A stretch of 64,000 nucleotides of DNA from Bryobacterales bacterium. Lineage in GTDB: Bacteria; Acidobacteriota; Terriglobia; Bryobacterales; Bryobacteraceae. This document shows positions 18,389 to 51,985 of this stretch, piece by piece (positions within the stretch are counted from its first letter, which is position 1; each line of letters begins with the position of its first letter). Position numbers and translations under genes: made by a program. The notes below the pieces were generated by a model. It ran no database searches. It was not told the origin of the DNA and saw only the letters and a program-made list of their open reading frames with translations. The DNA lies in contig CANIIC010000001.1 of NCBI GenBank assembly GCA_947467395.1, positions 368 through 64,367 on the forward strand, written 5' to 3'.

Positions 18389-18480
18389 GTTTGCTCCTGG
18401 TACAGGGTGATTTGGTTCTTGCTACAGTAGGTGTTCATGCGCAAATGCGCGCGACCGAGTAGAGGACATTCGCACACGGA

Positions 18481-35614: not shown

Positions 35615-37093
35615 CTAGCGCACAAGTTCCAGGTCGCCATTGGGAAGCACGCGGAAGCATTCCCGAGACCCGGTGCACTGTTCGGGCAATGCGTCTGGCT
35701 GGACGACGCGGACCCTGAGGGCCCGATTTCCAGCAACTAACTGGGCAGCCCATTCGGCGACCGGCATTCCCGGCTCCATGGGATCAATGGTGGACAGTCC
35801 GTGGTAGCCGTAGATGCCGTAGCGGTGCAAAGGAGGCTCCTGGGGAGTGCTGGCCAGGATGACATCCCAAGAACCTTGGCCCCAGCGACCAACCGGGAAC
35901 TGGCTCACGATCTTTTCAGCCGTAGCTGCGCACGCGATCACATTTTCAGTGCGTACAAGCGTTCCCGAAATCGCAAGCGTGAGCAACAGGCCGACGGCGA
36001 GAAAAAACGATCGCCCGGGAAGCAGGCGCCAGAGTGCCGTCGTAAGAATCAACGAGTAGAACGCGATCGGGGAGTAAAGGTAGGTCTCAGAGGCATGCGG
36101 CGTAAAGACCAGGTACGGGGAGAGACACGCGATGGTCGCAACGGTGAAGAAGCCCAAGGTCTTCCAGTCGAGCTTCTTGAACCTGATCCTCCAGAGCGGC
36201 TGCCGCAGCAGATATGCGAAAGCCAGAACCAGCGCCACACCCGCAGCGGCAAGACCGAGCACCAAATTACGAGTCAGGTGCACTTGAGAGGGCAGGGGAG
36301 TTTCCCAAAGCGAATTCGCCAGCAGGCTGTCCACCGGAAGCAGCGTGGCGCCAGCATAGACCAGGAGATTTTTCGCGATGAGGCCGAGCGGGGTAACCGC
36401 GGTTTTCTGGGCGACGAAGATGAAGCGAGGCACGACGAACAGGGTAAGTGTCAGCCCAGAGCCAAATGCCAAGGCCGGCAGGTACCTGCGCGGTAGGGGC
36501 TGGTGCTGCCGCCACCAGAGGAGCAGGTATAAGGCGATGAAGCCAAAGTTGACGATGACCGGCTCATAGGTGAGGAGGCCAAGGAGCATCGAGGCGAAGC
36601 TGCCCGTGAGGGCCAGTGCCCAATGTTTGCAGCGCAGGGAGTAGAGGAAAAGAAAGAAGGAAAGGAACAGGAAGGCGTAGGCCGCCGTGACCCCCCAACT
36701 GGCAACAATGACGGATTGATGGGCAAGCGGGTGAATTCCGAAAAAAAGGCCTGCGATCGTAGCGGGAACCGCGGCGCCCAGCATGAACCACCCGATTCCG
36801 TAGATGCAATACGCCACCAGCAAATGAAACGCGAGGTTGCGAACCCGGAACGGCGGTGCCGTATGTGCTCCCCAGGTCCAGGTAATGAAACTCAGGCCAC
36901 GCTGCACCGGCCGGTATTTGGTGGTGCCAAAGTGCGTCGTGGTGAGGATTTTGAGCGGATCGCCCGAATCTTCAAATTGCGCGCGGTGGATTTCGGCGAA
37001 ATCATCGTAACCGCAAAAATACGAGTTGAGACTGCGTCCATAGCCGGCAAGAATCGCCGCTGAGATCAGAACCAAAGCGAATAGGTGCTTCAT
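35615..37093 (-). CDS. Polytopic membrane protein, candidate GT-C-fold (ArnT/PMT-like) glycosyltransferase
   Basis: About 11-12 TM helices. Acidic motif CGYDDFAE in the first extracytoplasmic loop. A ~90-aa soluble C-terminal domain. Family not confirmed. Confidence 0.45.
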   Translation of the reverse strand: MKHLFALVLISAAILAGYGRSLNSYFCGYDDFAEIHRAQFEDSGDPLKILTTTHFGTTKYRPVQRGLSFITWTWGAHTAPPFRVRNLAFHLLVAYCIYGIGWFMLGAAVPATIAGLFFGIHPLAHQSVIVASWGVTAAYAFLFLSFFLFLYSLRCKHWALALTGSFASMLLGLLTYEPVIVNFGFIALYLLLWWRQHQPLPRRYLPALAFGSGLTLTLFVVPRFIFVAQKTAVTPLGLIAKNLLVYAGATLLPVDSLLANSLWETPLPSQVHLTRNLVLGLAAAGVALVLAFAYLLRQPLWRIRFKKLDWKTLGFFTVATIACLSPYLVFTPHASETYLYSPIAFYSLILTTALWRLLPGRSFFLAVGLLLTLAISGTLVRTENVIACAATAEKIVSQFPVGRWGQGSWDVILASTPQEPPLHRYGIYGYHGLSTIDPMEPGMPVAEWAAQLVAGNRALRVRVVQPDALPEQCTGSRECFRVLPNGDLELVR

Positions 37094-37851
37094 GTTGTGG
37101 GTGTGGCAGGCTGCGAAGACGGAATGACTCTGATCTGGCGGGCCGGGTTGCCAGCAACGATTGTGTTGGCCGCAACACTGCTCATCACGATGGAACCAGT
37201 GGACACAATACTGTTGTCGCCTATGGAGACGCCGGAGTGAATGATGACGTTGCTGCCGATCCAGACATTATCGCCAATGGTGACGGGACGAACGTCTTCC
37301 TGGTTGGCGGGCTTGCCGGCCATGCGGTCCGCGGGATCGACGGGGTGGCCGGAGACGTCGAAGATCTGAATACCGGCCGCAAGGCGACAATGCTTCCCGA
37401 TGGTGATGCGGTTACCCACAACGAAGGAGCAGGAGTGACCAATGCCAGTGTGGTCCCCAATGACCAACGTTGGATTCTGCGTGTAGCGGGCGGCAAAGAA
37501 GAAATTGCAGGCACCGTCGATGATCACGTTGTCGCCAATGATCAGATCCCCACGTCCTTGGACCCAGTGCAGGAACACGCCTGTGTGCAGATTACGGCCA
37601 TAGCTCTTGCAATACGCCTTAAACAGTGGCTCGCAAAAGAACACACGCACCAGAAAGTAGTAGACGCTTCGAACAAACAGAACCACGGTGAGAATCGGGC
37701 GGACAATCAGTTTAGGTGCGGGAACACTGATGTTGCGAATGGCTTTATAGATCTTGCGGATGGCGCGCGCGAGACGGCTCTCCGAGGTAGCAAGGTAACG
37801 ATGCGATTGTGCGAACAAAGACGGTGTCCTCTCCCAGTCGTTACCAGCCAT
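37090..37851 (-). CDS. Hexapeptide-repeat (LbH) O-acetyltransferase with an N-terminal TM segment
   Basis: Left-handed beta-helix repeats IGDNVWIGSNVIIHSGVSIGDNSIVSTGSIV. ATGA overlap with the downstream gene. Confidence 0.8.
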   Translation of the reverse strand: MAGNDWERTPSLFAQSHRYLATSESRLARAIRKIYKAIRNISVPAPKLIVRPILTVVLFVRSVYYFLVRVFFCEPLFKAYCKSYGRNLHTGVFLHWVQGRGDLIIGDNVIIDGACNFFFAARYTQNPTLVIGDHTGIGHSCSFVVGNRITIGKHCRLAAGIQIFDVSGHPVDPADRMAGKPANQEDVRPVTIGDNVWIGSNVIIHSGVSIGDNSIVSTGSIVMSSVAANTIVAGNPARQIRVIPSSQPATPTT

Positions 37852-38890: not shown

Positions 38891-39847
38891 ATGAATATTC
38901 GGCAGATCATTGTGTGCATTTCGACGCTGTGCTGCGCGTGGAGTCAGACACAGGTGGACCTCAAAACCCAGGCCAAGAGCAACGTGGACTTCAGCCAAGC
39001 GATGTTGACGAAGCCCGTGCGGGCGGGAGCCGTACTGCCAGCGACGTGCACGGCCGCGGAGATGTTTTTCAAGACAAACGCGAGTGCTGGGCAGAACCTG
39101 TTCGCATGCGTCGCAACCGACACGTGGGCCCTGCTAAGTGGCATTCCCGACGCTGCGTCCCTGTTGCCGCCATTGGCCGGGAACGCTGGCAAGCTGTTGA
39201 CCACCGATGGTACCGATGTCACCTGGAGCGCAGTGCCGCCGGGGAGCGTCACCATCCAGAACGGAGCGGCGATCGTGGGGACGCGCCCGGCGATGGAGTT
39301 CATAGCGGGAACAGGCCTGATCAGTGCAATCAGCGATACGGGGTCGGAGATTCGGGTGCAACACACGGTGGACACATCGGTGATAGAAACAGTTCAGTCG
39401 CATCAGTCGGGGACACCATTGCTGTGCGCAGCGGAGACGGGCTCGAGTTCAGCCTATTTGTGTTCTTTGAACCCAGCCCTGACGGGCTACACGAGGGGGA
39501 TGCGGCTCCATTGGGTACCGGACGTAAGCGGAGCAGGCGGTGTCACCACCCTCAATGTGGATCTTTTGGGGGCCAAGCGGGTGATGCTGGCAGGGGGTGA
39601 GGCCGATCCAAGCGCCGCCGACATTCAGGCAGGGGTAATGTACGATCTCTGGTATGATGGCACTGAATTCCGGTTTGTGTCGCCCGACGGGCTGCTCACC
39701 GAAAGCGTAGCCACCCCGCGTCCAACTTGTGAAGCTGGCATTTCCGGGCGTATCTCATATTCACACGGAGGGCCCGGAGTAAAGGACGAACTCTCAGTGT
39801 GCTCTAAAGATCAGGCAGATGCCTATGGTTGGAGAATACTCTACTAG
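38891..39847 (+). CDS. Secreted protein of unknown function (beta-rich, tail-fibre-like segment)
   Basis: GGGGAGAG RBS. Signal peptide MNIRQIIVCISTLCCAWSQ. The segment GNAGKLLTTDGTDVTWSAVP resembles a recurrent phage tail-fibre motif (from memory). Confidence 0.55.
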   Translation: MNIRQIIVCISTLCCAWSQTQVDLKTQAKSNVDFSQAMLTKPVRAGAVLPATCTAAEMFFKTNASAGQNLFACVATDTWALLSGIPDAASLLPPLAGNAGKLLTTDGTDVTWSAVPPGSVTIQNGAAIVGTRPAMEFIAGTGLISAISDTGSEIRVQHTVDTSVIETVQSHQSGTPLLCAAETGSSSAYLCSLNPALTGYTRGMRLHWVPDVSGAGGVTTLNVDLLGAKRVMLAGGEADPSAADIQAGVMYDLWYDGTEFRFVSPDGLLTESVATPRPTCEAGISGRISYSHGGPGVKDELSVCSKDQADAYGWRILY

Positions 39848-39882
39848 GCGGTCGCCGGGCTTGCGAGTGGAATAGGCAAAAC

Positions 39883-42800
39883 ATGAGACACGTTAAGTTC
39901 ACTGCTGTATTGATGTTGTTGATCCCATCTTTTGGCGCGGGCCAGGCGCTTCGGTCAGTCACTTTTGGCACATCTCAGGCAACTTACTCGGTTTCCGATC
40001 TGACTGCTGGCGATATGGTGGCAGAATTCCGGATCCATAACTTTGCACCACCGGTTTCCATAGATCGAGATATTTTCGGTGTGGCTGAACCTTTCCCTAT
40101 CCAGTTTTGCCGCATTCTGGCTAATACCCTGACGCTGCGGTGCTCATTCAGCAACGACGGTGCCCCGGACGGTTTGACGGACTTCGACTTAACAGGGAAG
40201 ACGGACGTGCGCGTCCGGTACCTGCGCTCCGGCACGGATAAGACTACGGTTCTGTCCACGTGGGACGGTGACTGTTCCAGTCCACAGACGCACATCAAGT
40301 CGATTGGCACGGTGGCAGGGCAGCCATTTGTGACCAACGGGCAGACGTTCGGAGTCGGGGGACAAGGGCTGTCCCTTGGCTTCCTGCGAATTTCAACAGT
40401 TGTCGCCCCGTCGACAATCTGCCCCGCCGATGTTGCATCGGCAGGATACCTGTCGCTGCTGTTCGATAACAACACGTTCGCGGATACCAGCGGACGAAAC
40501 CATCACTTCTCTACTAACCAGGCCACTTATACTGCCTCGCCGGTGTACAATCCCCGAGCGGTCATCTCAGGCCTGCAGACTTACAAGCGGGTTGTGCGCG
40601 CAGGCGACCCCATGACCCTGACCTCACAAGGTTCGACCACTTTCTCAGGTAATGGCGTTCCAGTCCAATATGATTGGGCTCAGGTGGCTGGCCCAGACGA
40701 AGCGAGCCTCGACTCCCGCAACAGTCCTACTGTAGTAATCAAGCCTCCAGTGACGGGTGAGTACACGTTCCGGCTTTCCGTTCGGGACGCCGAAGGAAGA
40801 ATCGGCTCAGTGGATCAGAAAATTGGAGTGGTAGCCAGCGATAGTAGAGGTTTAGTTGCTATCGAAAACCAGGAATTGGCAGGGGTTTTGGGGCCCTTGA
40901 CCCGGCACGGAGTGAATCCATGGCCCTGGTACGACGTCGCCGAGGCGGCGGATGCGGATGCTCTGGAAGCAGCGGGCATGTTGAACCCGCTCACGGGATG
41001 CTGCACGTCGATGGCTGGAACCGTCACCGTTACCGCAGCCCCTCCTAACACGACCGAAGGCACTTTCATATGCTGCACCCCTGTCGTAACCGGAACAGGT
41101 ACCCATTTTGTTTCAGACTTACACGTAGGGGATGCCTTGTTCCTGTGGTGGGATGTCGGAGGCGATGGTTCCAACCGCGGGCGGGCGCTGGTCGCTGTGC
41201 AGCAGATTCTGGACGACACTCATTTTCGGATTGCGGACTACTACTGGACCCGTCCGCTGAGCTTGTCGTCAAGCATGAACTATTCAAAGGCGGGACCGGA
41301 CATTGCCGGCTATACGTATTACGGCCAACCGAGCACGTCATGGAACTACTACGACGCGATCCTCGGGTTGGGTCGCCTGTGGCAGCGAACTGGACTGGAG
41401 CACTATCGAGACTCTTTTCGGTTGGCATGCGAGCAATGGTGGGTCTATGGCCTGGATTCAGGCTACGCATCCGTGATCCCGCGCAATGCGGGGTGGCACG
41501 CCATGGCGGCCTGCGCGGCAGACAATCACCCGGATTGGTGGGAAGGACTGGCGCGGAACGTGGCGAGAACAGTGGGTAACACTCCATCACCGGTGACGAA
41601 TGGCAACAACTCTTTTGACTCACGGGAAATCGGTTTCACCACGCGCGCGACGGCTTTACTCGCGAAGTATTACCCGGCTCATGCGGCCGACGCAACGGCG
41701 GCAAGGACGCTCTGGTGCGGACATCTGAGCCGTCTGGTAAATGAGATCTGGATCCATAACTTCGTGACGCTGAACGGCGGTCGCCATGGCTACTGGCCGG
41801 AAGACTTATACTCTGTGGATCTCAACATTCCAACCGGCATTTCGGAAGAAACCGGAGCGTTTGGAACTTCTCCCTGGCGGTCCAACGGGATCGTGAACCT
41901 AGCCTTGATTCGGGCGCATGACGCATACACTGATGCCGCCTCCTGTAACAATCCAACGCTGGCGGACACGCTGTTGGACGTGATCAAGAAGTCAGCCGCT
42001 TTTATGTATGACTACGGCCGTTCGCCGGATGGGGGGCTGTACTACAACGTTCTGTATGCCACCAATCAAGGGCTGGCGGCGGGAACGGTGTGGCGTAACA
42101 ACGATACCCCGGGCAGCATTGCTGTGATAAACGGGGACACCGCTATCGTTGGGACATCGACCACGTTTCCAACATCTTTTTCCTGCGACGGTTCGGACCG
42201 TATAACAATATTGCAGTCCAGCGGCGCGAGTGCTGACTATCAGGTCGCTGGCTGCGTCGATGCAACGCACGCACGTTTGGCAACCGCCTATGTAGGTCCG
42301 ACGGGTTCGGGTTTGAGTTATTCCAACGCAGGCCGAATCGCCGTTACAAACGGGAGCACCACTGTAACGGGAACTGCGACGTCGTTCCAACCAGTGTTCG
42401 CTCCTTGCGACGGCACAACATACATCGGAATCCCAGGTCAGAGGGATCGCTGGGTATACAAGGTGGTTGGATGCCCCAGCAATACTTCGCTCACCCTTGA
42501 AATACCCTATCGCAGTAGCACCGAGTCAGGGATCCGTCTGTTTACGAGAGGGTCCAAGGCGCCGAGCAACTGCGCGCCCTCCATCGCGAAGTCCTGCGAA
42601 GCGGATTTATACGATGGACGCAACCTCGCACACGATCCCATGGCGTCGTTCGCGTGGCTGTACTTCAAGACCGGGGAGAGCTCTTGGAAGGACGCCGCCG
42701 AGTACTTCGGCGGGCGCGCTTACGGCGGGCCCGCGGCAGGTCCGGGGGCCATCGGACCACCGTTTGGACCGGAGGCGGACGGACATCCGAACAACTTCGA

Positions 42801-43194
42801 TGATCCGCTGCTGGCGTGCAGTCAGAATGGCGGCATCCCACCATGCGGGAAGGGCTTCGGCGCCAGCGTCGTCCTGGGCAAGCCGTTCGGGATGAGTGCA
42901 GGGATAGGTGATGCGCCCAACGCATTCGCGTACCTGGTTGGCGGTCCTACGCGGTTCGCGAACGCTAGTTTACCCGTCTCTATTAACGCACCGGCGGTGG
43001 AGGGTGCGGCCTTCGCGCGCCTGACCGTCACGCGTCCCACCCGGGAGACCGCGGTAACCGACTGCGCAGCACTTCCGTGCTCAGTGCAGGTGGATCGGCG
43101 ACTGGGGACGCATGTGCTCGCCATCGATTACTTGTCGCCGGCAGGGCAGGTGCTGCGGTCGGTGAAATTCATGGTGTACGGGGACCGGCCCTAG
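39883..43194 (+). CDS. Large secreted multidomain protein (beta-sandwich N-terminal region, PKD-like Ig domain, helical repeat/toroid-like centre, beta-rich C-terminus)
   Basis: ATG 39883 gives signal peptide MRHVKFTAVLMLLIPSFGAGQA. PKD-like block VQYDWAQVAGPDEASL...GEYTFRLSVRDAEGRIG. The central region is W/Y-rich and helical. Confidence 0.6.
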   Translation: MRHVKFTAVLMLLIPSFGAGQALRSVTFGTSQATYSVSDLTAGDMVAEFRIHNFAPPVSIDRDIFGVAEPFPIQFCRILANTLTLRCSFSNDGAPDGLTDFDLTGKTDVRVRYLRSGTDKTTVLSTWDGDCSSPQTHIKSIGTVAGQPFVTNGQTFGVGGQGLSLGFLRISTVVAPSTICPADVASAGYLSLLFDNNTFADTSGRNHHFSTNQATYTASPVYNPRAVISGLQTYKRVVRAGDPMTLTSQGSTTFSGNGVPVQYDWAQVAGPDEASLDSRNSPTVVIKPPVTGEYTFRLSVRDAEGRIGSVDQKIGVVASDSRGLVAIENQELAGVLGPLTRHGVNPWPWYDVAEAADADALEAAGMLNPLTGCCTSMAGTVTVTAAPPNTTEGTFICCTPVVTGTGTHFVSDLHVGDALFLWWDVGGDGSNRGRALVAVQQILDDTHFRIADYYWTRPLSLSSSMNYSKAGPDIAGYTYYGQPSTSWNYYDAILGLGRLWQRTGLEHYRDSFRLACEQWWVYGLDSGYASVIPRNAGWHAMAACAADNHPDWWEGLARNVARTVGNTPSPVTNGNNSFDSREIGFTTRATALLAKYYPAHAADATAARTLWCGHLSRLVNEIWIHNFVTLNGGRHGYWPEDLYSVDLNIPTGISEETGAFGTSPWRSNGIVNLALIRAHDAYTDAASCNNPTLADTLLDVIKKSAAFMYDYGRSPDGGLYYNVLYATNQGLAAGTVWRNNDTPGSIAVINGDTAIVGTSTTFPTSFSCDGSDRITILQSSGASADYQVAGCVDATHARLATAYVGPTGSGLSYSNAGRIAVTNGSTTVTGTATSFQPVFAPCDGTTYIGIPGQRDRWVYKVVGCPSNTSLTLEIPYRSSTESGIRLFTRGSKAPSNCAPSIAKSCEADLYDGRNLAHDPMASFAWLYFKTGESSWKDAAEYFGGRAYGGPAAGPGAIGPPFGPEADGHPNNFDDPLLACSQNGGIPPCGKGFGASVVLGKPFGMSAGIGDAPNAFAYLVGGPTRFANASLPVSINAPAVEGAAFARLTVTRPTRETAVTDCAALPCSVQVDRRLGTHVLAIDYLSPAGQVLRSVKFMVYGDRP

Positions 43195-43247: not shown

Positions 43248-43453
43248 TGTCCAGTCTCTTTGCCGCGCCCTAAACTGTTCCGGAGAGTAAGCCGATGGAC
43301 CTATGAGTAGCGCTGCTTGTATTTACGAGTATTGTAGGAATAGGCTCGAGTGGATCATAAATCGATAGATGCGGTCAGGCAACGTATCCGTGGTTTAACC
43401 CGGCTGGATGGCGGTGAGCGTCGAAGCTTCCTGTGGGCCACAGGGCCACAAAC

Positions 43454-44407
43454 ATGATCCAATCACTTTCGATCGTTATTCCCATCTATAACTCTGAAAA
43501 GAGTCTTCCGATTCTCTTGGAGCGCTTGGGCAATCAGCTGCCTAGATTGGCGGAGCACTGGGAAGTCATCCTGGTGAACGATGGCAGCCCGGACCGAAGT
43601 TGGCAGGTAATCCAAGGCGCATTGGCGTCCCACGCATGGCTGCGCGCGATTGACCTGATGCGCAACTACGGGCAGCACAACGCTCTTCTGTGCGGCATTC
43701 GGAACGCCCAGCACGAAGTGATCGTGACCATGGACGACGATCTTCAGAACCCGCCGGACGAGATTGGCGGCCTACTTGCCAAGCTTCAGGAAGGGTATGA
43801 CGTCGTTTACGGGTATCCGCGGGAAGAGAGCCACGGCCTGTTGCGCAACCTGGCATCCCGAATCACAAAAAAGGTGTTACAGGCCGGCATGGGCGTCGAC
43901 GTCGCAAGCCGGGTCAGCAGCTTTCGGGCATTTCGAGCTGAAGTTCGGGAAGGATTTGAGGGCTATCGGGGCGCCTTCGTGTCGATTGATGTGTTGTTGA
44001 GTTGGTCTACCGCTCGCTTCGCCGCAATTCCGGTGAACAATCCGCCTCGCGAATTGGGTGAATCCAACTACACCCTGCGCAAGCTGATCGCACACGCCCT
44101 GAACATGGTGACCGGCTTTAGCATCGTTCCCTTGCAAATTGCCAGCATCCTGGGGTTTGGCTTCGCCGTTTTCGGGATGGGGACGTTGGGGTACGTGGTG
44201 GTGCTGTACGTCATAAACGGCGGCAGCATACCGGGTTTTCCCTTTTTGGCCTCTCTGATCTCCATCTTCTCCGGCGTGCAGCTGTTCTCCCTGGGCATTT
44301 TGGGCGAGTATCTGGCGCGCATTCATTTTCGAACCATGGACCGGCCGTGCTACGCGGTTCGTACCGAGCGGACAAGCACCACAAAACCCGGAGGTCCAGC
44401 GAAATAA
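43454..44407 (+). CDS. GT2 polyprenyl-phosphate glycosyltransferase (ArnC/GtrB/DPM1-like)
   Basis: Blocks LSIVIPIYNSEKSLP, VNDGSPDRS, RNYGQHNALLCG and MDDDLQNPP, plus two C-terminal TM helices. Confidence 0.85.
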   Translation: MIQSLSIVIPIYNSEKSLPILLERLGNQLPRLAEHWEVILVNDGSPDRSWQVIQGALASHAWLRAIDLMRNYGQHNALLCGIRNAQHEVIVTMDDDLQNPPDEIGGLLAKLQEGYDVVYGYPREESHGLLRNLASRITKKVLQAGMGVDVASRVSSFRAFRAEVREGFEGYRGAFVSIDVLLSWSTARFAAIPVNNPPRELGESNYTLRKLIAHALNMVTGFSIVPLQIASILGFGFAVFGMGTLGYVVVLYVINGGSIPGFPFLASLISIFSGVQLFSLGILGEYLARIHFRTMDRPCYAVRTERTSTTKPGGPAK

Positions 44408-44423
44408 GAGCTGGCGAAACGGC

Positions 44424-45257
44424 ATGGACATGGCACAGTTCGCTCGGAATTTGCGGCGGAACGACCGCGGCGTGTGGTCCCCCGATTCACAGTCGGCCAT
44501 CTCCTCTCCGGCGCATGGAAATAGTGTGTACTTCGATGTAGAAGGGAAATCCTTCTGGTTCCAACATCGCAACCGCTGCCTCCTGGAGTTGCTCCAGCAA
44601 TTCCCACCGCAAGGGACGATCTTCGATGTGGGCGGGGGCAACGGCTTCGTGTCACTCGGCTTACATCAAAATGGTCACTCCGTGGTGCTGGTGGAACCGG
44701 GGCCCGAAGGCGCGATGAACGCACAGCACCGGGGCATTCAGAACGTGGTCTGTTCCACTCTGCAGGACGCCGGGTTCGTGCCGGCATGCATGGACGCCGC
44801 GGGGCTCTTTGACGTGGTGGAACATATCCAGGACGAAGTGGGCTTCCTGCGCGATGTTTTTGCGGGGCTCCGCGCCGGTGGGCGCTTGTATTTGACCGTG
44901 CCCGCCTATTCGTCCCTCTGGTCGCAAGAGGATGTGGATGCGGGCCATTACCGGCGCTATACGAAACCGCAGTTGTCTGCGGCGCTTGGTCGCGCGGGCT
45001 TTGAAATCGAATATCAGACATACCTCTTCCAGTTCCTGATTCTGCCCCTCTTGCTGCTGCGCGGCTTGCCGTATCGTCTGGGTCTCGCGCAGAGCGGATG
45101 CGACGCGGAACAAGTCAATCAGAGTCATCAGTTGCCCGGAGGTGCGGCCGGCCGGTTCCTGCAAGCGTGGCTGGACCGTGAAATTGCAGTGATCCGCTCG
45201 GGCGGGGCTGTGAGTTCGGGCACCAGCATCCTGGCGGTAGCTAGAAAACCCCGGTAA
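44424..45257 (+). CDS. Class I SAM-dependent methyltransferase
   Basis: Motif I TIFDVGGGNGFVSLGL, with acidic residue VLVEP and post-I LFDVVEHI. Confidence 0.75.
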   Translation: MDMAQFARNLRRNDRGVWSPDSQSAISSPAHGNSVYFDVEGKSFWFQHRNRCLLELLQQFPPQGTIFDVGGGNGFVSLGLHQNGHSVVLVEPGPEGAMNAQHRGIQNVVCSTLQDAGFVPACMDAAGLFDVVEHIQDEVGFLRDVFAGLRAGGRLYLTVPAYSSLWSQEDVDAGHYRRYTKPQLSAALGRAGFEIEYQTYLFQFLILPLLLLRGLPYRLGLAQSGCDAEQVNQSHQLPGGAAGRFLQAWLDREIAVIRSGGAVSSGTSILAVARKPR

Positions 45258-45262
45258 AGAGC

Positions 45263-46012
45263 ATGCAAAACCCGTCTATGACCGACGTCTGCCACCTGTT
45301 GGACTGGGATACCGGGTTTTTCGGCGTTCGCATCGCGCGCCTGGATCGCACCGCACCGACAGCTGCTGAACTGCAGGATGCCTTGATCTGGTGCGAAACC
45401 GAGCGGATCGAGTGTTTGTATCTACTGGCGGACGCCAATGATCCGGCCACAACGCGACTGGCCGAAGATGCCGGATTCCATCTGCGCGACATCCGGATGA
45501 CACTGGCTCGAGCGCTGGCCGGAAGCGCTGCGGGTCTGCCGCCCGGCATCCGGACTGCCACCGAAGGAGACATCGATGGGTTGGCGCGTATCGCTGAAAC
45601 CAGCCACACCGATTCGCGGTTTTACTACGATCCGGGCTTCCCCCGGGAGCACTGCGACGCTCTGTACCGAACCTGGATTGAGAGGAGCTGCCGCGGATAT
45701 GCGCAGCAGGTATTTGTCGCGGATCACGAGGGAGTGGCAGCCGGGTATATCACTTGCCACAAGGATGAGGACGCCGGCCGGATTGGCCTGTTGGCTGTCG
45801 CCGAAGCCGCGCGAGGTGGCGGGCTGGGGAGCCGTTTGATCTCTGCGGCACTTCAGTATTTCGCCGCGTCCGGATTTGACCAAACGACGGTAGTCACACA
45901 AGGCCGCAATACGGCAGCACAGCGGCTCTATATCCGCCACGGCTTCCTGCCTCAAAGTACAGAGGTATGGTATCACCGCTGGTTCAGACAGCCTGAACAA
46001 GAACACAAATGA
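45263..46012 (+). CDS. wecD: dTDP-4-amino-4,6-dideoxyhexose N-acetyltransferase (WecD/RffC-like GNAT)
   Basis: Collinear with E. coli WecD as recalled: LLDWDTGFFGV, DSRFYYDP, YRTWIERSCRG, GRIGLLAV and VVTQGRNTAAQRLYIRHGF. Confidence 0.8.
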   Translation: MQNPSMTDVCHLLDWDTGFFGVRIARLDRTAPTAAELQDALIWCETERIECLYLLADANDPATTRLAEDAGFHLRDIRMTLARALAGSAAGLPPGIRTATEGDIDGLARIAETSHTDSRFYYDPGFPREHCDALYRTWIERSCRGYAQQVFVADHEGVAAGYITCHKDEDAGRIGLLAVAEAARGGGLGSRLISAALQYFAASGFDQTTVVTQGRNTAAQRLYIRHGFLPQSTEVWYHRWFRQPEQEHK

Positions 46013-47148
46013 GCCCAAGAATTCCATTCAACAAACCCTGCCTGGAAGGCAAGGAATTACTCTACGTTGCCGAAGCGATCCTGCTGGGACATGCGGCCGG
46101 CGATGGATCCTTCACAAAGCGATGCCACCAACTGCTGGAGGGCGGGCTGGGGGCGGCTCGCGTGCTATTGACGACATCCTGCACCCACGCGCTGGAGATG
46201 AGCGCCCTTCTGCTGGACATTCAACCCGGTGACGAAGTGATCGTACCGGCGTTTACGTTTGTGTCCACCGTCAATGCGTTTGTTCTCCGGGGCGCCACCC
46301 CAGTATTTGCCGATATTCGGCGGGACACGCTGAACATGGATGAGAAACTGCTGCCGGACCTCATCACGTCACGAACCAAGGCCATCGTTCCCGTCCATTA
46401 CGCGGGCGTGGCTTGTGAGATGGACACGATCTGTGCCCTTACCTCCCGGCACGGGATTCCCTTGGTGGAGGACAATGCGCATGGACTCTTTGCGCGTTAC
46501 AAGGGACGCTTTTTGGGCACCTTCGGCTGCCTGGCCACCCAAAGTTTCCACGAAACCAAGAACATCACTTGCGGTGAGGGCGGGGCGCTCATCATCAACG
46601 ACCTATCGCTCAAGGAACGGGCGGAGATTATTCGCGAGAAAGGCACCGATCGCAGCCGGTTCTTCCGCGGTCAAGTGGACAAGTACACTTGGGTGGGCAT
46701 CGGCTCCAGTTATCTGCCCTCCGATATTCTGGCCGCCTATCTGTGTGCGCAACTCGAAGCCTGGACCGTGATTCAGAGCAAACGCAGCAATATCTGGCGC
46801 CGCTATGCGGAGGGTTTGAAGCACTGGGCCGAACAATCCGGCGTACAGATGCCCGTGGTTCCCGAAGAGTGCGAGCAGGCCTATCACATGTTTTACATCC
46901 TGCTGCCTTCGTTGCGTGTGCGGCAAGCCATGATTGAGCACCTCAAGGCCAGCGGCGTCATGGCGGTGTTTCACTACCTGCCGCTGCATCTTTCGGCGAT
47001 GGGAGAGACCTTTGGCGGGAGGGTAGGCCAGTGCCCGGTCACTGAGGACGTCAGCGATCGCCTGCTGCGCCTGCCCCTCTACAACGATCTGAGACCCGCC
47101 GAGCAGGATCGGGTCATTGACGCTGTCTGCTCGTTTAAGGTCGATTAA
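46009..47148 (+). CDS. wecE: dTDP-4-amino-4,6-dideoxygalactose transaminase (DegT/DnrJ/EryC1 family)
   Basis: Near-collinear with E. coli WecE as recalled: IPFNKP, LLTTSCTHALEMSALLLDIQPGDEVIVPAFTFVSTVNAFVLRGA, VPVHYAGVACEMD, SFHETKNITCGEGGALIIND, REKGTDRSRFFRGQVDKYTWVGIGSSYLPSD and LLRLPLY. Confidence 0.92.
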   Translation: MSPRIPFNKPCLEGKELLYVAEAILLGHAAGDGSFTKRCHQLLEGGLGAARVLLTTSCTHALEMSALLLDIQPGDEVIVPAFTFVSTVNAFVLRGATPVFADIRRDTLNMDEKLLPDLITSRTKAIVPVHYAGVACEMDTICALTSRHGIPLVEDNAHGLFARYKGRFLGTFGCLATQSFHETKNITCGEGGALIINDLSLKERAEIIREKGTDRSRFFRGQVDKYTWVGIGSSYLPSDILAAYLCAQLEAWTVIQSKRSNIWRRYAEGLKHWAEQSGVQMPVVPEECEQAYHMFYILLPSLRVRQAMIEHLKASGVMAVFHYLPLHLSAMGETFGGRVGQCPVTEDVSDRLLRLPLYNDLRPAEQDRVIDAVCSFKVD

Positions 47149-48164
47149 AGCAGGGCGTTGCCGATGCCGTGGAGCGCCTGCTGAATGGCCGCGTAATAAG
47201 CGGCGGCGGAAAATCGCTCTGCAGCGGCCTTACGGGCCTGTGCCGCCGTTTGCTCCACCAGCTCGGGTGAAGCAAGCAGGGTGCGAATCTGCTCCCGAAG
47301 CGCGCTGGGATCGGCCGGTGGCACCAGGAAACCGGTCTTGCCATGCTCAATATAGCTGGCGGCACCAGTGTTATCGTTCACCACTACACACTTCCCCAAG
47401 CGCATCGCCCCAACATAGGTGATCACACCTGGCCGGCGAATCACATCTTTTTCAAGCGCCAGCACCAGGAGCCGCGCCGCACACAGTTGACGCCAGTATT
47501 CGGCTTCGGGAATACGGCCCAGAATCTTCACATTACCCGGCACCGCGAGTGAGCGAAAGTGTTCCTGAGGGGCCACCACGCGGATCTCCACCGGGAGATC
47601 CTTAACCGCCGCCAGTAGAGTCGGGTAGTCGCGCTGATGCACGCCGCTGGTCAGAATATAGTCGCCCGTGACCGGCTCCAATTCCGAACCGGCGTCGGTA
47701 CAGTACGGAATCCACACAAACTTCTTCTGGTCGACCCCAAAATACCGGGCGTAGTTCGTCGCTTCGGCGTGACAGAACACCTGAATCCGCGAGGCTCCAG
47801 CAACAATACGCCGGTGCAGCCAGCGATTCAGGTGGATTCGCCAGCCGGTTTTATACGTTTCGTACCATTCAATGTCGAGCAACAGGCTTGGTCTGCGCAG
47901 AAACGGGACCATGCCCTGCAGCAACATCAGCAGTTCTCCATAGCGGCCGGTTACAACCGCGGCATAGCGTCCGCGCCGGCGGAAGAGCGTGTAGGCCAGC
48001 CAAAGCCGCGCAAGATGTTCCGTCTTCCCGCCAAGGGGGTAGTTACGTTGAAACTCGGTAGACAGTTCGGCCTCATCCGCCAAAACGTCGAAGCACCCTG
48101 GCAGCGGGACGTTCCGGGGGGCGGTCAGGGGGCGGGTAAACAACACGTTCATGCGGTGGTCCAT
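47145..48164 (-). CDS. Glycosyltransferase-like protein (GT-B C-terminal half), paralog of 29324..30292
   Basis: Block GAMRLGKCVVVNDNTGAASYIEHGKTGFLVPPADPSALREQI. An alternative start lies at 48152. Confidence 0.6.
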   Translation of the reverse strand: MDHRMNVLFTRPLTAPRNVPLPGCFDVLADEAELSTEFQRNYPLGGKTEHLARLWLAYTLFRRRGRYAAVVTGRYGELLMLLQGMVPFLRRPSLLLDIEWYETYKTGWRIHLNRWLHRRIVAGASRIQVFCHAEATNYARYFGVDQKKFVWIPYCTDAGSELEPVTGDYILTSGVHQRDYPTLLAAVKDLPVEIRVVAPQEHFRSLAVPGNVKILGRIPEAEYWRQLCAARLLVLALEKDVIRRPGVITYVGAMRLGKCVVVNDNTGAASYIEHGKTGFLVPPADPSALREQIRTLLASPELVEQTAAQARKAAAERFSAAAYYAAIQQALHGIGNALL

Positions 48165-48359
48165 GCGGGAATTGCACGATCCGTTTGCAGCAATTTCAGG
48201 GGCAAGCTATTGAGGCGGAACCGCAATGCCGATAGGACGGATATGTCCAAGGGTCGCGCTTGTGGGGCAACCTCGACCGCGATTCCGGCGGCGCGCGCAA
48301 GCGTAATCAGTTTGGGGCGAAACTCTCGCATCATCTGTCACAATAGAACAAAACTTCCT

Positions 48360-48587
48360 ATGGAATCGAATCTTCTCGAAATTCTGGCGATTATCAAGCA
48401 ACTGGGGGGCCTGGCGAGCCTCGACGCGGATCAGGATTTTTACGAAGCTGGGGTCAGTTCGGTCCAGTCCCTGCCGCTGCTCATGCAGATCGAAGATGAA
48501 TACAGCATCAGCATACCCGATGAGCGGTTTACCGAAATCCGTACCGCCCGCCAGTTGAGTGCCCTGGTAGGAGAACTACACGCGTGA
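48360..48587 (+). CDS. Acyl/peptidyl carrier protein (75 aa)
   Basis: Phosphopantetheine site context FYEAGVSSVQSLPLLMQIEDEY. This is only the last 75 codons of ORF 47637..48587. The rest of that ORF is antisense to the glycosyltransferase gene. Confidence 0.75.
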   Translation: MESNLLEILAIIKQLGGLASLDADQDFYEAGVSSVQSLPLLMQIEDEYSISIPDERFTEIRTARQLSALVGELHA

Positions 48588-49753
48588 GCACACGAACTAT
48601 TCCGCTACGTATTCCGGCCACGGAGATGGCTCAAGAAGAGATTCGCAAACAAGTCGCGTTTTTGTCGCGCGCGGTGGGCAACGTCCGGTTTTCTGAGGAT
48701 GGGGCTTCCCTGCTGTTTGATGTAACCGGCGAGGCGCCGTCGGATCTGGACACCTCGGCGCAGCAGTTGGCGAATCAGGTGGCGCGCGCGTTGCGCAGCC
48801 TGGAACGCAAGGTGGTGTTTACCAGCCCGGCCTGCGCGGCACCCCAGTTCGCCCCGGAACTGGACTACACGGGCATTCACTTTCTGGGAACTGGACAGGT
48901 CGCTATGCAGGGAATCCCGCTGCGGTTGTTCCGCTACTTTGACCGTATTTTCGAAGGCTTCGGCGACGCCTGGAAAGCGGGCCCGTTGCTGACACCGACG
49001 CTGATTCCCACCAAAACACTTTCGCTGTGCGACTACTTTCGTTCGTTCCCGCACAATGTGACGTTCGCGTCCCACCTCCGTGAGGATGCGCACGTCATCG
49101 ATAACTTCCGCAAGCGACACCAGGAAAGCGATGACGTGGACGAACACGCCTTGGGGGACATGGAGCGGCCTGAGGCATGCCTGTCGCCCGCCGTCTGCTA
49201 TCACGTGTATCATCTGCACGAAAACCAGACCCTGCCGGCCGAAGGCACCGTCTATGGCATCTGCGGAAAATGCTTCCGCTATGAGTCTTCCAACCTGGAA
49301 GACCTGCGGCGTTTGTGGGACTTCACCATGCGGGAAGTGGTCTATCTGGGTTCTCGCGAATACGTCTTGTCGCAGCGGGAAATTTCTATTGAGATGATGG
49401 CGGCCTTCATGGAGACGCACCGCCTGGCCGGTGAAATCCGCACGGCCAGCGATCCTTTCTTCGTGGCTCCGGAAGCAGCCTCGAAGACCTACTTCCAATT
49501 AAGCTCCGACTCAAAATTCGAAGTCTCTCTGATGCTGCGCGATGGAGGCCGCCTGGCGGTGGGTTCCCACAACTACCACTCCGACTTTTTCGGCCGTGCG
49601 TTCCATACCAATATCGAGGGTGCGGCCGCCATGCACAGCGTTTGCATGGCGTTTGGACTGGAACGCTGGGTCCACGCCTTCCTCGATCAACATGGCGCCC
49701 ATCCGCGGCGCTGGCCCGATGCAATTCGGAACGCGCCAGAATTCCAGAAGTGA
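48584..49753 (+). CDS. Amino acid--[acyl-carrier-protein] ligase (SerRS-like class II aaRS homolog lacking a tRNA-binding domain)
   Basis: GTGA overlap with the carrier-protein stop. Its blocks match those recalled for Bll0957-type ligases: CLSPAVCYHVY, GKCFRYESS (motif 2), RLWDFTMREVVYLG, ASDPFFV, FEVSLML, SHNYHSDFFG and HSVCMAFGLERW (motif 3). Cys/Glu/Cys sit in Zn-ligand positions. There is an extra ~80-aa N-terminal region. Confidence 0.8.
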   Translation: MSTRTIPLRIPATEMAQEEIRKQVAFLSRAVGNVRFSEDGASLLFDVTGEAPSDLDTSAQQLANQVARALRSLERKVVFTSPACAAPQFAPELDYTGIHFLGTGQVAMQGIPLRLFRYFDRIFEGFGDAWKAGPLLTPTLIPTKTLSLCDYFRSFPHNVTFASHLREDAHVIDNFRKRHQESDDVDEHALGDMERPEACLSPAVCYHVYHLHENQTLPAEGTVYGICGKCFRYESSNLEDLRRLWDFTMREVVYLGSREYVLSQREISIEMMAAFMETHRLAGEIRTASDPFFVAPEAASKTYFQLSSDSKFEVSLMLRDGGRLAVGSHNYHSDFFGRAFHTNIEGAAAMHSVCMAFGLERWVHAFLDQHGAHPRRWPDAIRNAPEFQK

Positions 49754-49765
49754 GCATTTTTAGAA

Positions 49766-50653
49766 GTGAACATTGAAGTTCGATCGGTAACCGGCGCGGA
49801 TTTCGCCGGCGATGGCAGCCAGGTGCTGATGGCTGCGTGGGCTCCTCCGTCGCTCCGCTATTCCCCTCAGTACGTCGAGTGGCAACTGACGTTCCCAGGT
49901 CCGTGCGAGGCTCCGGCAGTCGCTGCATTTGAGGGCCGGCAGACAGTGGGCTTCGCCGCCAGTACTCATCGCCGCGTCTTCTCGGGCGGCCACCCGCTGG
50001 ATCTCCTCGTGGTGACCTTTGTCGCCGTCGATCCCAGAGTTCGTGGCCAAGGCATCGCTCACCGGCTTTACGCGGCGCTGCTCTCCGAAATCCGTCGCAC
50101 TGGGCTGCCTGTGATCACCTACGGTCGCAGTAACTCCTCCGGCCAGCGCGCGATTGAGCAGGCGTACCCACTCGCCGGCTTTTCCTTAAGCATCTTTGGT
50201 GAGTATGCACCCTATGCGACCATCCCCCGAACGGCAACGTCCGAAGGGTGGTCCAAATCGACGCTGTTGCCCCCCATCCCACAAGATGGTGACTTCGAGT
50301 ACAGCGCCCCCACTCCGGAGCAGTTTGCGCATTATTTTCGCGATCCGCGGGGACGCCACCTGTGGGCTCATGAGGGTGGCGGTTGGGCGTGGGCGACCGA
50401 AGTGGAATTTGTCTCCCCCAAGGGCGTAGAGACGGTCACATCCCTGGAATCGATCACCGGCGTGCCCATTGAGGCCCTCCCCGGCCTGGCGGCGGCAGCG
50501 GGTCAGGGCAAGTTGGTGCACGCGCCAAATTTACTCGGATACACCTCGCAGGAGTTGAGGCCGTTGGGTTTCCGCCAGACCACAGCCGCTTGGATCGGGT
50601 ACTGTGCTGGCAGGTCCACCAGCGCGCGCGGAATTAACCTCGAAATCATTTAA
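49766..50653 (+). CDS. Two-lobed GNAT-superfamily acyltransferase
   Basis: CoA-binding motif VDPRVRGQGIAHRLYAALL in the N-terminal lobe, plus a ~140-aa second lobe. GTG start without a clear RBS (start uncertain). Confidence 0.6.
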   Translation: MNIEVRSVTGADFAGDGSQVLMAAWAPPSLRYSPQYVEWQLTFPGPCEAPAVAAFEGRQTVGFAASTHRRVFSGGHPLDLLVVTFVAVDPRVRGQGIAHRLYAALLSEIRRTGLPVITYGRSNSSGQRAIEQAYPLAGFSLSIFGEYAPYATIPRTATSEGWSKSTLLPPIPQDGDFEYSAPTPEQFAHYFRDPRGRHLWAHEGGGWAWATEVEFVSPKGVETVTSLESITGVPIEALPGLAAAAGQGKLVHAPNLLGYTSQELRPLGFRQTTAAWIGYCAGRSTSARGINLEII

Positions 50654-50667
50654 AGCGCCTGCGGCTT

Positions 50668-51753
50668 CTAATCCGCTTTGTTGGAGAGCTTCAAAATTTC
50701 GATGAGCACGACGCCACCCATCAGCAGAGCCAGATCTGTGATCTCTGGAGTTCGGCCAGGAAGATACCGCTGCATCCATTCCCCCACCGCTAAGACTCCG
50801 AAGGGAAGGCCGACAGTCCACAGCAATCGCATGCCGGATCGTTGCAGGAACCAGGTAGTCGCCGTGTAGAGGAAGAGTTTTCGGAAGACCACGGTGTAAT
50901 ACTCGAGCCCCACCGCATCGAACCACGTGGAGAAGGGCGCCCAGGAGAACTCCTGCGGCGTATTCAGGAACGTGAAGGGCCGGAGTTCGTCCACCAGCAG
51001 CCAGATCAAGAGTCCTGCCGCGAACCACGACCGAGGGAGTTTGGGAAACGCCAAGACGGCGCCGGCCGCGGCACCCAGCACCACGTGGGGAGACAGGCTT
51101 CGATCCAGGATCACGAATTGTCCCACGGTCGCGGCAAACGCAAGCACCAGCCACGGGGTGGTGGCCTTGGCGTAGCGCAGCACAGCGAACCCGAACATGG
51201 CGGCAAAGAATAGCGGCCATGACCAAGCCGCGGGGTGGGTCCACTGGACCAATGTTGACGACCAGGAAATTCGGGGGACAAACGGGAAGAGCTGCCAGGA
51301 GAACCACAACCCGGTGAACAGGGCGGCCATGGGAGCCAGCCTCAATTGTTCAAGATGGCGGCGGAACCAGGGCGATGGGTTGCCCCGCAGGAATTCTGCC
51401 AGCAGGGCGCCCACCGCGGAACCAGCGGAGTTCGTCACAAGGTCATTAAGCGTGCTGTATCGCGACGGGGACCAGATCTGAAGATACTCAACCACGAAGG
51501 AAACACCGGCTGCGGTCAACGTCGCCAGCAGGACCATCCTGGAATTTCCTCCCAACGCGGAGCGAATGGAAAAGCCCAGAGGCACATAGAAGAGCAGGTT
51601 GAGAATCGCATCCAGCGCCTGCCGCCGGCCTGCCATCGGCAGCCACAGAAATCCCTCGCCCGGAGTGGGCGAAAACGTGCCCGGATACAGCGAGAGGTAG
51701 GCGATAACGGAGATGTAGAGGATCGCGAAAATACGTGCCTGGCGTGGTCCCAT
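50668..51753 (-). CDS. VanZ-like domain membrane protein with an extra C-terminal multi-TM region
   Basis: ATG 51753 (MGPRQARIFAILYISVIAYLSLYPG). VanZ-like blocks DAILNLLFYVPLGF, VEYLQIWSPSRYSTLNDLVTNSAGSAVG. About 6 further TM helices. Confidence 0.55.
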   Translation of the reverse strand: MGPRQARIFAILYISVIAYLSLYPGTFSPTPGEGFLWLPMAGRRQALDAILNLLFYVPLGFSIRSALGGNSRMVLLATLTAAGVSFVVEYLQIWSPSRYSTLNDLVTNSAGSAVGALLAEFLRGNPSPWFRRHLEQLRLAPMAALFTGLWFSWQLFPFVPRISWSSTLVQWTHPAAWSWPLFFAAMFGFAVLRYAKATTPWLVLAFAATVGQFVILDRSLSPHVVLGAAAGAVLAFPKLPRSWFAAGLLIWLLVDELRPFTFLNTPQEFSWAPFSTWFDAVGLEYYTVVFRKLFLYTATTWFLQRSGMRLLWTVGLPFGVLAVGEWMQRYLPGRTPEITDLALLMGGVVLIEILKLSNKAD

Positions 51754-51985
51754 GGAGGAAGCTCCAGCGTCGCATGCGGTTGGCGCGGACGGCAAGCAAT
51801 GTGACGCGACGAAACGCAGGAGGTCTTGCTCGCCTCGAAGCACCAGCCTCGCTTTTACCCCACGGTCCCAGGATCGTGCAACCGCAGAAGCCCCCTCCGA
51901 TTGTCATCGGGGCAGTTTCCCGGTTCTAAGTCACCTTGACTTCAAAAGCACCCACCGCTAGCATTAGCAACCGGGGGGAAGTTGG

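Follow-up and report, generated by a model that had tools for sequence, protein, structure and literature searches.

Within a stretch of 64,000 nucleotides from a Bryobacterales bacterium (GenBank assembly GCA_947467395.1, contig CANIIC010000001.1, positions 368 to 64,367 of the forward strand; hereafter the window), a locus for polysaccharide biosynthesis ends in a cassette of three genes encoding a carrier protein (CP), a ligase-like enzyme related to class II aminoacyl-tRNA synthetases (aaRSs), and a duplicated, two-lobed acyltransferase of the GNAT family (dup-GNAT). Comparison with homologous gene neighborhoods, numbered here L001 onward, adds a fourth component, namely a left-handed beta-helix (LbH) acyltransferase whose gene lies elsewhere in the same locus of the window. 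All coordinates refer to the whole stretch.

Genes of the cassette and their distant partner

The genes and the one domain central to this analysis are as follows.

48360-48587, + strand: CP, 75 aa, matching Pfam PP-binding (E 4.5e-11)
48584-49753, + strand: long-form amino acid:[carrier protein] ligase-like enzyme (hereafter the ligase), 389 aa, with a class II aaRS core at about residues 100-383
48584-48823, + strand: N-terminal beta-alpha-beta-beta-alpha-beta domain of the ligase, about 80 aa, seen in its AlphaFold (AF2) model and kept across the long-form clade
49766-50653, + strand: dup-GNAT, 295 aa, with a GTG start 12 nt past the ligase stop codon (49751-49753)
37090-37851, - strand: hexapeptide-repeat (LbH) acyltransferase, 253 aa, matching Pfam Hexapep and belonging to a module-specific, N-extended subfamily

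Both the listing of open reading frames (ORFs) and direct reading of the sequence give CP, ligase, and GNAT as three co-directional ORFs, and the TGA stop of the CP gene is shared with the GTG start of the ligase gene (a GTGA overlap in cacGCGTGAgc, 48584-48587). A first-pass annotation, made from the letters of this DNA alone, had described the same three proteins, their GTGA coupling, and the 12-nt gap, all of which can be read directly from the sequence. A scan of 48100-50800 for promoters and terminators was uninformative, with counts at the level of shuffled sequence. In the CP, the serine for attachment of the phosphopantetheine (Ppant) arm is S34 within AGVSS, and the serine of this AGV(S/T)S motif is kept across a 69-member family alignment. 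The CP matches NCBIfam acyl carrier protein (ACP) models, DltC being a weak match among them.

The ligase matches the NCBIfam model NF005479, 'amino acid--[acyl-carrier-protein] ligase', with 143.8 bits (E 5.5e-42), below the equivalog cut-off of 357. Matches to the models of methanogen-type seryl-tRNA synthetase (SerRS) are weaker (NF002120, 102.8 bits with a cut-off of 611; TIGR00415, 62.4 bits with a cut-off of 489) and are confined to the core, residues 102-383, full-length SerRS membership failing. Pfam tRNA-synt_2b is matched at E 2e-6 with 28.4 bits, slightly below its gathering threshold (GA) of 29.3. The best sequence match in the Protein Data Bank (PDB) is Bll0957 (E 1.1e-21), with ligase residues 82-383 aligned upon residues 30-328, and in this alignment C205, E234, and C354 of the ligase fall on the zinc ligands of Bll0957. 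These three residues, as well as R232 of motif 2 and R361 of motif 3, are invariant in 35 homologues, which indicates that the ligase is not degenerate. Foldseek searches with the AlphaFold model of the ligase (pLDDT 78.5) return methanogen-type SerRS (E ~1e-22) and Bll0957 (TMt 0.75, 26% identity), and homologues are often named 'seryl-tRNA synthetase' in the source databases. Hidden Markov model (HMM) search, PDB match, and fold search thus agree with the class II aaRS core and the Cys/Glu/Cys zinc positions recognized in the first-pass annotation. Taken together, the sequence comparisons support a probable assignment of the ligase as an aaRS-core, zinc-type relative of the amino acid:[carrier protein] ligases, provided with a dedicated and translationally coupled CP.

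The ligase belongs to a separate long-form clade

The region preceding the ligase core forms a small folded domain in the AF2 model, with strands at residues 2-7, 31-36, 42-47, and 77-80, helices at residues 14-24 and 55-69, and pLDDT values of 76-91. Eight of its residues are invariant (A16, E18, E19, I20, K22, F36, R68, and R75). A profile search with this domain against PDB and Pfam yields no meaningful relative; matches to designed WD-repeat proteins are artefacts with per-domain i-Evalues in the hundreds, and a match to COMMD9 is non-significant. At ~80 aa the domain is not large enough for the N-terminal domain of methanogen SerRS, which measures ~165 aa, but the Foldseek alignments to SerRS cover ~390-415 columns. 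With an extra folded domain present, the initial view that the ligase lacks any tRNA-binding domain is not fully settled.

A word-index search recovers 1635 relatives of the ligase at E <= 1e-5, the best 120 of which are all 374-405 aa long and at least 62% identical, and an exhaustive search of representatives returns 1741 clusters at E <= 1e-3, of which 319 reach E <= 1e-30. Most of the 150 best clusters are 380-410 aa in length and align from about residue 5-20 of the ligase onward, which makes the N-terminal region a character of the clade. Judged from these alignments, the ligase is a member of a separate and large long-form clade, set apart from enzymes of the Bll0957 type.

Enzymes of the canonical Bll0957 type form a very large family of their own, with at least 7859 proteins at E <= 1e-10. 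In Bradyrhizobium (L080:6122-9893), a Bll0957-type ligase is accompanied by an acyl-CoA dehydrogenase, a divergent CP, and a 293-aa protein without a Pfam match, and neither an LbH nor a dup-GNAT gene occurs in this neighborhood. The 293-aa protein resembles a GNAT by eye, but it was rejected as a relative of the dup-GNAT at an hhalign probability of 0.9%. Given this different neighborhood, a function found for the genes described here would not automatically extend to Bll0957-type enzymes. A third, different context for aaRS-like ligases is seen in a Planctomycetota metagenome-assembled genome (MAG), where a 30%-identical relative of the ligase lies amid genes for a sulfotransferase, an AurF-like N-oxygenase, and an alpha/beta hydrolase (L078:7685-12044).

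Four genes are kept together across phyla

A scan in which each GTDB species was represented by one genome yielded 72 loci, and conservation within them was assessed by tblastn and HMM searches. The loci span at least seven phyla and include Acidobacteriota (Bryobacterales, Terriglobia, Vicinamibacteria), Planctomycetota, Armatimonadota, Gemmatimonadota, Verrucomicrobiota, Acetobacteraceae, Solirubrobacterales, and Myxococcota, the last with 16 Sorangium genomes (So ce56 among them) and Chondromyces apiculatus DSM 436. The CP gene is directly upstream of the ligase gene in 68 of the 72. A dup-GNAT gene follows the ligase directly in 48 and is present in 54. These frequencies support the conclusion that the trio is kept together far beyond chance.

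A set of three partners, however, is incomplete. A gene for an LbH protein of ~240-270 aa stands directly upstream of the CP gene in 52/72 loci and is present in 60/72; the first-pass annotation had missed it. In the window, the LbH gene is displaced from the cassette. All four genes are contiguous in 38 loci. LbH, CP, and ligase also occur without a canonical GNAT, in L030, L068, L079, and others. In L030 the module is followed by genes for glycosyltransferases (GTs) and a deacetylase in the order GT4, GT4, deacetylase, GT4, GT2, and in L079 the order is CP-ligase-LbH-GT2-GT2-AsnB...Bac_transf...EpsI. A distant myxobacterial clade at 40% identity has the arrangement CP-ligase-LbH-LbH with no GNAT, the two LbH genes standing in tandem in L072. 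The LbH is thus the most widely linked partner found for the CP-ligase pair, and because it accompanies CP and ligase even where the GNAT is missing, it is the better candidate for an aminoacyl transferase.

The LbH acyltransferase

The LbH protein of the window is 55% identical to the LbH encoded directly upstream of the CP gene in L001 (Gemmataceae). Its residues 130-243 match the maltose and galactoside O-acetyltransferases Maa and LacA in the PDB (E 1e-21), and the catalytic histidine, H169 in SGHP, aligns with that of both enzymes and is invariant. NCBIfam matches to Maa, LacA, WbbJ, and WcaF all fall under their cut-offs, the best reaching 85.9 bits with a cut-off of 314. The protein departs from the compact ~185-aa architecture by an N-terminal extension of ~120 aa that contains a hydrophobic segment at about residues 41-73, as seen in hydropathy profiles, which suggests that the LbH is associated with the membrane.

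In a reverse search, the LbH family was followed into metagenomes, where full-length relatives were collected at 44% identity or more. CP and ligase genes adjoin the LbH gene in L083, L089, and L093, and in L085 and L090 a CP gene is found at the contig end. Among loci of generic LbH proteins (L105-L160), none of the 56 checked contains a ligase. The link is therefore specific to the N-extended LbH subfamily, and its position is not obligatory.

In the window, the LbH gene forms one operon with an FkbM methyltransferase gene and the following gene.

35615-37093, - strand: polytopic membrane protein, 492 aa, with at least eight hydrophobic segments and a 4-nt overlap with the LbH stop

No match to this membrane protein is found in Pfam, NCBIfam, or PDB, even at E 10. 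Strong homologues are encoded right after the LbH in L016 and near the module in L007, and we tentatively regard the protein as an accessory part. Near its N-terminus it carries a GYDDFAE motif that, by eye, appears GT-C-like.

The duplicated GNAT resembles N-myristoyltransferases

Pfam detects only the first part of the dup-GNAT, Acetyltransf_1 and Acetyltransf_9 being limited to residues 31-117. The AF2 model (pLDDT 93.6) consists of two alpha/beta lobes, and all 50 Foldseek matches listed are N-myristoyltransferases (NMTs), the classic example of a duplicated GNAT, with TMq 0.73, E 4e-15, and 10-12% identity. In Pfam, neither FemAB nor NMT/NMT_C is matched; a divergent paralogue in L028 does give a weak match to the Pfam NMT N-domain (E 1e-4). 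The N-lobe keeps a CoA/pantetheine motif, R93-x-x-G96-x-A98, which is not known from FemX. The chain ends in ...NLEII, and NLE(I/V)(I/V) terminates at the same column in 30/30 homologues. NMT acylates the alpha-amine of glycine and uses its C-terminal carboxylate as the catalytic base. The two-lobed nature claimed for this GNAT is thus borne out by model and fold search, whereas its description as FemX-like survives as an analogy only.

Two further arrangements tie the GNAT to the ligase. In Chondromyces apiculatus DSM 436, ligase and GNAT occupy one 743-aa ORF with a linker of ~35 aa (L057:86-2317), and a 743-aa ligase-GNAT representative was also found in the global search (P0279). Moreover, in the Bryobacterales loci L003 and L013, an Fmt/ArnA-like formyltransferase (Formyl_trans_N and C domains) occupies the GNAT position, its gene overlapping the ligase stop in L003. 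The GNAT clearly belongs to the same pathway as the ligase. With an exchange of acetyl-type for formyl-type enzymes, an NMT-like fold, and a conserved chain end, it is most simply read as an amine acylase. NMT likeness and replacement by a formyltransferase in two loci suggest N-capping rather than aminoacyl transfer, that is, a GNAT predicted from sequence and model to acylate the alpha-amine of the carried amino acid and not to move the aminoacyl group itself.

Apparent ligase-GNAT fusions in L047, L062, and L076 proved to be out-of-frame ORF extensions, leaving L057 as the sole in-frame case. A second GNAT paralogue, in a 419-aa ORF, follows the fusion ORF at L057:2546-3805.

Polysaccharide loci and other gene contexts

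The cassette and the LbH gene of the window share a locus in which a further GT gene adjoins the cassette.

~21721-50653, both strands: Wzx/Wzy-type polysaccharide locus, assigned by Pfam and NCBIfam annotation
47145-48164, - strand: GT4 glycosyltransferase, matching Pfam Glycos_transf_1 and divergent from the cassette

The first part of the locus encodes GT4, GT2, RmlB (above its curated cut-off), an RmlC-like cupin, Wzx, an AsnB-like amidotransferase, Wzy, a UDP-GlcNAc 2-epimerase, and another GT4. The last part, ahead of the cassette, encodes a 318-aa secreted protein, a PKD protein, an ArnC-like GT2, a methyltransferase, a WecD-like protein, WecE, and the GT4 listed above. The ArnC-like polyprenyl-phosphate GT2, methyltransferase, WecD-like GNAT, and WecE lie together at 43433-47148 (+), and the RmlB/RmlC-like cupin genes at 24047-25608 (-). 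WecE scores 564 bits, above its cut-off, and the WecD-like GNAT 110 bits, below its cut-off of 219. Together, these genes look like an Arn/Gtr-style route in which a 4-acylamido-6-deoxyhexose would be placed on a lipid carrier for periplasmic transfer.

The first-pass annotation had set the cassette beside wecE and wecD. They do share a locus, but the GT4 gene, on the opposite strand, stands between wecE and the cassette, and the association is not conserved: WecE-like genes occur near the module in four other loci and WecD in none, which makes the link to 4-amino-sugar synthesis a local one. Neither the WecD-like protein nor the 277-aa methyltransferase has homologues in other loci, and both were rejected as parts of the module. 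Homologues of the GT4 of the window, 56% identical, are encoded just downstream of the module in L013 and L020; tentatively, this GT4 may transfer the decorated sugar.

The wider association was surveyed with marker HMMs built from recurrent neighbors and confirmed in identity by Pfam (GT4, GT2, Wzy_C, ABC_tran, Asn_synthase, and Epimerase_2). Two or more such markers lie within 10 kb of the module in 35 of the 72 loci. All of these are among the 50 loci outside Myxococcota (35/50), where the contexts are rich in GT genes, of Wzx/Wzy or ABC type, and spread over five or more phyla; the count inside Myxococcota is 0/22. The co-occurrence with polysaccharide genes expected from the window is therefore usual outside Myxococcota and fails within that phylum. 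The module is not normally tied to genes for nonribosomal peptide synthetases (NRPSs) or siderophores, and one locus carries a polyketide synthase (PKS).

That locus, from a Singulisphaera MAG (L051:11234-19675), encodes a 58%-identical ligase of the same clade followed by a 2813-aa PKS whose domains are AMP-binding, ketosynthase (KS), dehydratase (DH), ACP, KS, and acyltransferase (AT); genes for a MacB/FtsX-type ABC transporter precede the CP-ligase pair, and the context resembles that of a natural product. In Sorangium and Polyangiaceae, a PF03706 protein is kept immediately upstream of the module (L066:~7400-8600). The module of L066, from Sorangium cellulosum So ce56, maps to about 9.134-9.137 Mb of NC_010162.1. 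An 829-aa ORF called upstream of the LbH in Sorangium is over-extended, the real gene encoding this PF03706 protein of ~380 aa.

A proposed aminoacyl-carrier pathway and its alternatives

From these sequence comparisons we propose, with a probability of roughly 0.5, that LbH, CP, long-form ligase, and dup-GNAT would constitute a four-component, tRNA-independent aminoacyl-carrier pathway that decorates a glycan intermediate. In the first step, strongly indicated by homology, the zinc-dependent class II core would adenylate a small amino acid and attach it as a thioester to the Ppant arm on Ser34 of the CP. Gene linkage suggests that the membrane-associated LbH would then take the aminoacyl group from the CP and pass it to a membrane-bound acceptor at the cytoplasmic face, which here is most likely one of the sugars in the undecaprenyl-linked repeat unit made by the surrounding Wzx/Wzy locus. 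In a third and less secure step, the NMT-like dup-GNAT might N-acylate the alpha-amine of the amino acid, whether still bound to the carrier or already transferred, and in some relatives the formyltransferase might add a formyl group to the amine in the same way. The resulting substituent, an N-acyl-aminoacyl group, would be of a kind known from O-antigen chemistry. More tentatively, the module may be a route to amino-acid or N-acyl-amino-acid substituents on surface glycans and, in myxobacteria, on lipids, in which the aminoacyl group is formed and N-capped on the carrier and then delivered by an LbH that draws upon an aminoacyl-S-carrier instead of acetyl-CoA.

Several observations weigh against this proposal. 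The LbH gene of the window lies 10.5 kb from the cassette on the opposite strand, and at least L081, L082, L088, and L091, which encode full-length LbH relatives, have no CP or ligase in the available flank. The LbH core is Maa/LacA-like, and enzymes of this subfamily normally acetylate sugar hydroxyls from acetyl-CoA, so that the LbH could be no more than a common O-acetyltransferase. Transfer of the aminoacyl group could be the task of the dup-GNAT, and the formyltransferase could act on an amino sugar in the manner of ArnA. As for the glycan, GT genes are absent from all 22 myxobacterial loci, and decoration of glycans is thus not universal; the Sorangium loci encode, just upstream of the LbH, the ~380-aa membrane protein of PF03706 (LPG_synthase_TM, MprF flippase-like); the Gemmataceae locus contains no glycan genes; and the Singulisphaera ligase is followed by a PKS.

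In the mechanism first suggested for this cassette, the two-lobed GNAT is a FemX-like aminoacyl transferase that acts on a 4-amino-4,6-dideoxyhexose made by WecE, and the LbH is an unrelated O-acetyltransferase. The frequent position of the GNAT gene directly downstream of the ligase and the Chondromyces fusion would fit such a role, as would the pantetheine-binding motif of the N-lobe and the presence of WecE, a WecD-like gene, and RmlB in the same locus. Carrier-protein-dependent GNATs do exist, SbzI and FeeM being precedents (PMC11685415), and N-aminoacyl Qui4N is known chemistry (PMC3210612). Yet the GNAT-less LbH-CP-ligase sets of several loci and of the distant clade would then have no transferase, L003 and L013 have a formyltransferase in its place, and the WecE and WecD genes seldom accompany the module. 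The WecD-like enzyme would, moreover, already acylate the 4-amine, and the best fold match is to NMT and not to FemX. We consider this mechanism unlikely and favor the LbH as the transferase.

A similarly unlikely alternative keeps the enzymes but has them act on a small molecule or membrane lipid, with products such as a lipo-amino acid or an aminoacylated phospholipid or glycolipid, the co-location with polysaccharide genes reflecting a general clustering of envelope genes. The myxobacterial, Gemmataceae, and Singulisphaera loci are its principal support, and the PF03706 neighbor hints at a lipid-linked product in Sorangium and Polyangiaceae; the hydropathy-based membrane anchoring of the LbH and the AlmEFG precedent of lipid A glycylation would also agree with it. 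It accounts poorly, however, for the 35 of 50 loci outside Myxococcota that are GT-rich polysaccharide loci in five or more phyla, for the module standing in one gene string with GT4/GT2 and deacetylase or Bac_transf genes in L030 and L079, and for an LbH core of the sugar O-acyltransferase type.

We regard as very improbable a split analogue of the epsilon-poly-lysine and delta-poly-ornithine synthetases, in which the ligase would replace the adenylation (A) domain, the CP the thiolation (T) domain, and a membrane-anchored LbH trimer the C1-C3 polymerization domain, to give a short homo-oligomer or polymer of an amino acid. The polymerization domain of Pls/PosA has been modeled as three membrane-anchored left-handed beta-helices that use aminoacyl-S-PCP, where PCP is the peptidyl carrier protein (PMC10522769). 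A weak NCBIfam match of the LbH to the terminal domain of Pls/PosA, the tandem LbH genes of L072, and the several loci without glycan genes point in this direction, but the match covers one generic hexapeptide stretch only and the strong polysaccharide context in most phyla would be left unexplained. Known amino acid:[carrier protein] ligases, furthermore, reportedly load Gly/Ala-type amino acids, which have no side-chain amine. Least credible is a degenerate or divergent SerRS paralogue, acting on tRNA or inactive, beside coincidental neighbors: the names given to many homologues, the best Foldseek E-values, and the extra N-terminal domain would suit it, but that domain has only ~80 aa and no similarity to tRNA-binding domains detectable by profile search of PDB and Pfam, the SerRS equivalog cut-off is widely missed, the CP gene is adjacent in nearly every locus and here overlaps the ligase start, and the catalytic residues are invariant.

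Comparison with known carrier-dependent systems

The amino acid:[carrier protein] ligases Bll0957, Bll6282, and Atu2573 were reportedly described by Mocibob et al. in 2010 and 2013, and Bll0957 and Atu2573 are said to have been shown to load Gly or Ala-type amino acids. The ligase of the window shares with the Bll0957 type a class II core derived from methanogen SerRS, a Cys/Glu/Cys zinc site, and a dedicated small CP encoded alongside. In contrast, it is only ~26% identical, is ~60-70 aa longer, and possesses the added ~80-aa N-terminal alpha/beta domain, and in Bradyrhizobium the Bll0957 type has other partners (the acyl-CoA dehydrogenase and the 293-aa protein, with no LbH and no dup-GNAT). 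A 2022 review still called the biological role of aaRS-like amino acid:[carrier protein] ligases unknown (PMC9437257), and our literature search found no report of these ligases in polysaccharide clusters and no role assigned to them.

The proposed pathway shares its logic with AlmEFG, which transfers glycine from a carrier protein to lipid A in Vibrio cholerae (PMC4278540), and with DltABCD, which D-alanylates teichoic acids: a ligase loads a Ppant-bearing CP and the CP donates to an envelope glycolipid or polymer, with no tRNA involved. The ligase here is, however, class II aaRS-like and not of the ANL type (DltA/AlmE), and the candidate transferases are LbH and dup-GNAT instead of LPLAT (AlmG) or MBOAT/SGNH (DltB/DltD) enzymes, with transfer probably cytoplasmic. 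No MBOAT or LPLAT transferase is found among the genes annotated at 10-52 kb, the whole window and the genome not having been searched for these families. In Vibrio cholerae O1, the rfbKLMNO genes provide an O-antigen locus with its own acyl carrier protein, adenylating ligase, and acetyltransferase-like enzyme for tetronate N-acylation of perosamine, a 4-amino-6-deoxyhexose; in that system the ligase belongs to the ANL type, and a hydroxy acid takes the place of the amino acid.

Membrane-anchored LbH domains that draw an aminoacyl group from a carrier thioester are known from Pls/PosA (PMC10522769). In those enzymes a single NRPS-like chain combines an ANL A domain with three fused LbH domains, set between six transmembrane helices, and the products are polymers of diamino acids, whereas the module consists of separate proteins whose sequence likeness to Pls/PosA is limited to generic hexapeptide repeats. 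With Maa, LacA, WbbJ, and WcaF, the LbH shares the beta-helix core and the catalytic histidine but adds the ~120-aa N-terminal extension and is genetically tied to a CP instead of free-standing. The dup-GNAT resembles NMT in its two GNAT lobes, in an N-lobe for the acyl-pantetheine donor, and in a strictly kept chain end; it differs in being bacterial and ~100 aa shorter, with similarity of fold only. As to the product, N-formyl, N-acetylglycyl, N-acetyl-alanyl, and N-(3-hydroxybutyryl)-alanyl groups occur on the 3- or 4-amino-6-deoxyhexoses of bacterial polysaccharides (PMC3210612).

The ligase fold, the chemistry of carrier loading, and carrier-mediated aminoacylation of the envelope, as in Dlt and Alm, are already known. 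What appears to be new is a separate long-form clade of aaRS-derived ligases that, together with an N-extended LbH and an NMT-like GNAT, is locked in a module of four genes, a module frequently placed in polysaccharide loci, with the likely transferase shifting from the GNAT to the LbH. The aaRS-like ligases have been known biochemically and structurally since 2010 without an assigned role, and the module makes this 15-year-old question testable in tractable hosts such as Sorangium cellulosum So ce56, which has a complete genome, and Chondromyces apiculatus DSM 436, a cultured type strain. If the proposal is correct, a large clade of amino acid:[carrier protein] ligases, comprising >300 clusters at 50% identity, would gain a physiological role, and LbH sugar acyltransferases would gain a new class of donor, using carrier-protein thioesters beyond lipid A synthesis and the Pls-type synthetases. 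The Dlt and Alm systems, which adjust the charge of the envelope, would have a counterpart driven by an aaRS-like enzyme, and, if glycans are indeed decorated, the module would explain the origin of the N-acyl-aminoacyl sugars long known in O-antigens.

Other genes of the window

The 318-aa protein encoded at 38891-39847 (+) begins with a sequence resembling a signal peptide, and searches of Pfam, NCBIfam, and PDB give no match to it even at E 10; homologues, divergently oriented, are encoded just upstream of the CP gene in L003, L011, L012, and L014. It is followed at 39829-43194 (+) by a K319L-like PKD protein of 1121 aa, and PKD proteins recur in the Bryobacterales loci. Past the cassette, a 391-aa membrane protein of the VanZ family (50668-51843, - strand) is encoded convergently to the GNAT, the two stop codons lying 14 nt apart; its homologues occur only in copies of the same contig, and it was rejected as a part of the module. 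The region upstream of the polysaccharide locus (15286-19902, + strand) codes for a carboxyltransferase subunit of acetyl-CoA carboxylase, for a KS-like protein at 18481-19902, and for a PEP-CTERM protein at 16680-17432, the last of which suggests an exosortase system like that of related loci with EpsH or EpsI.

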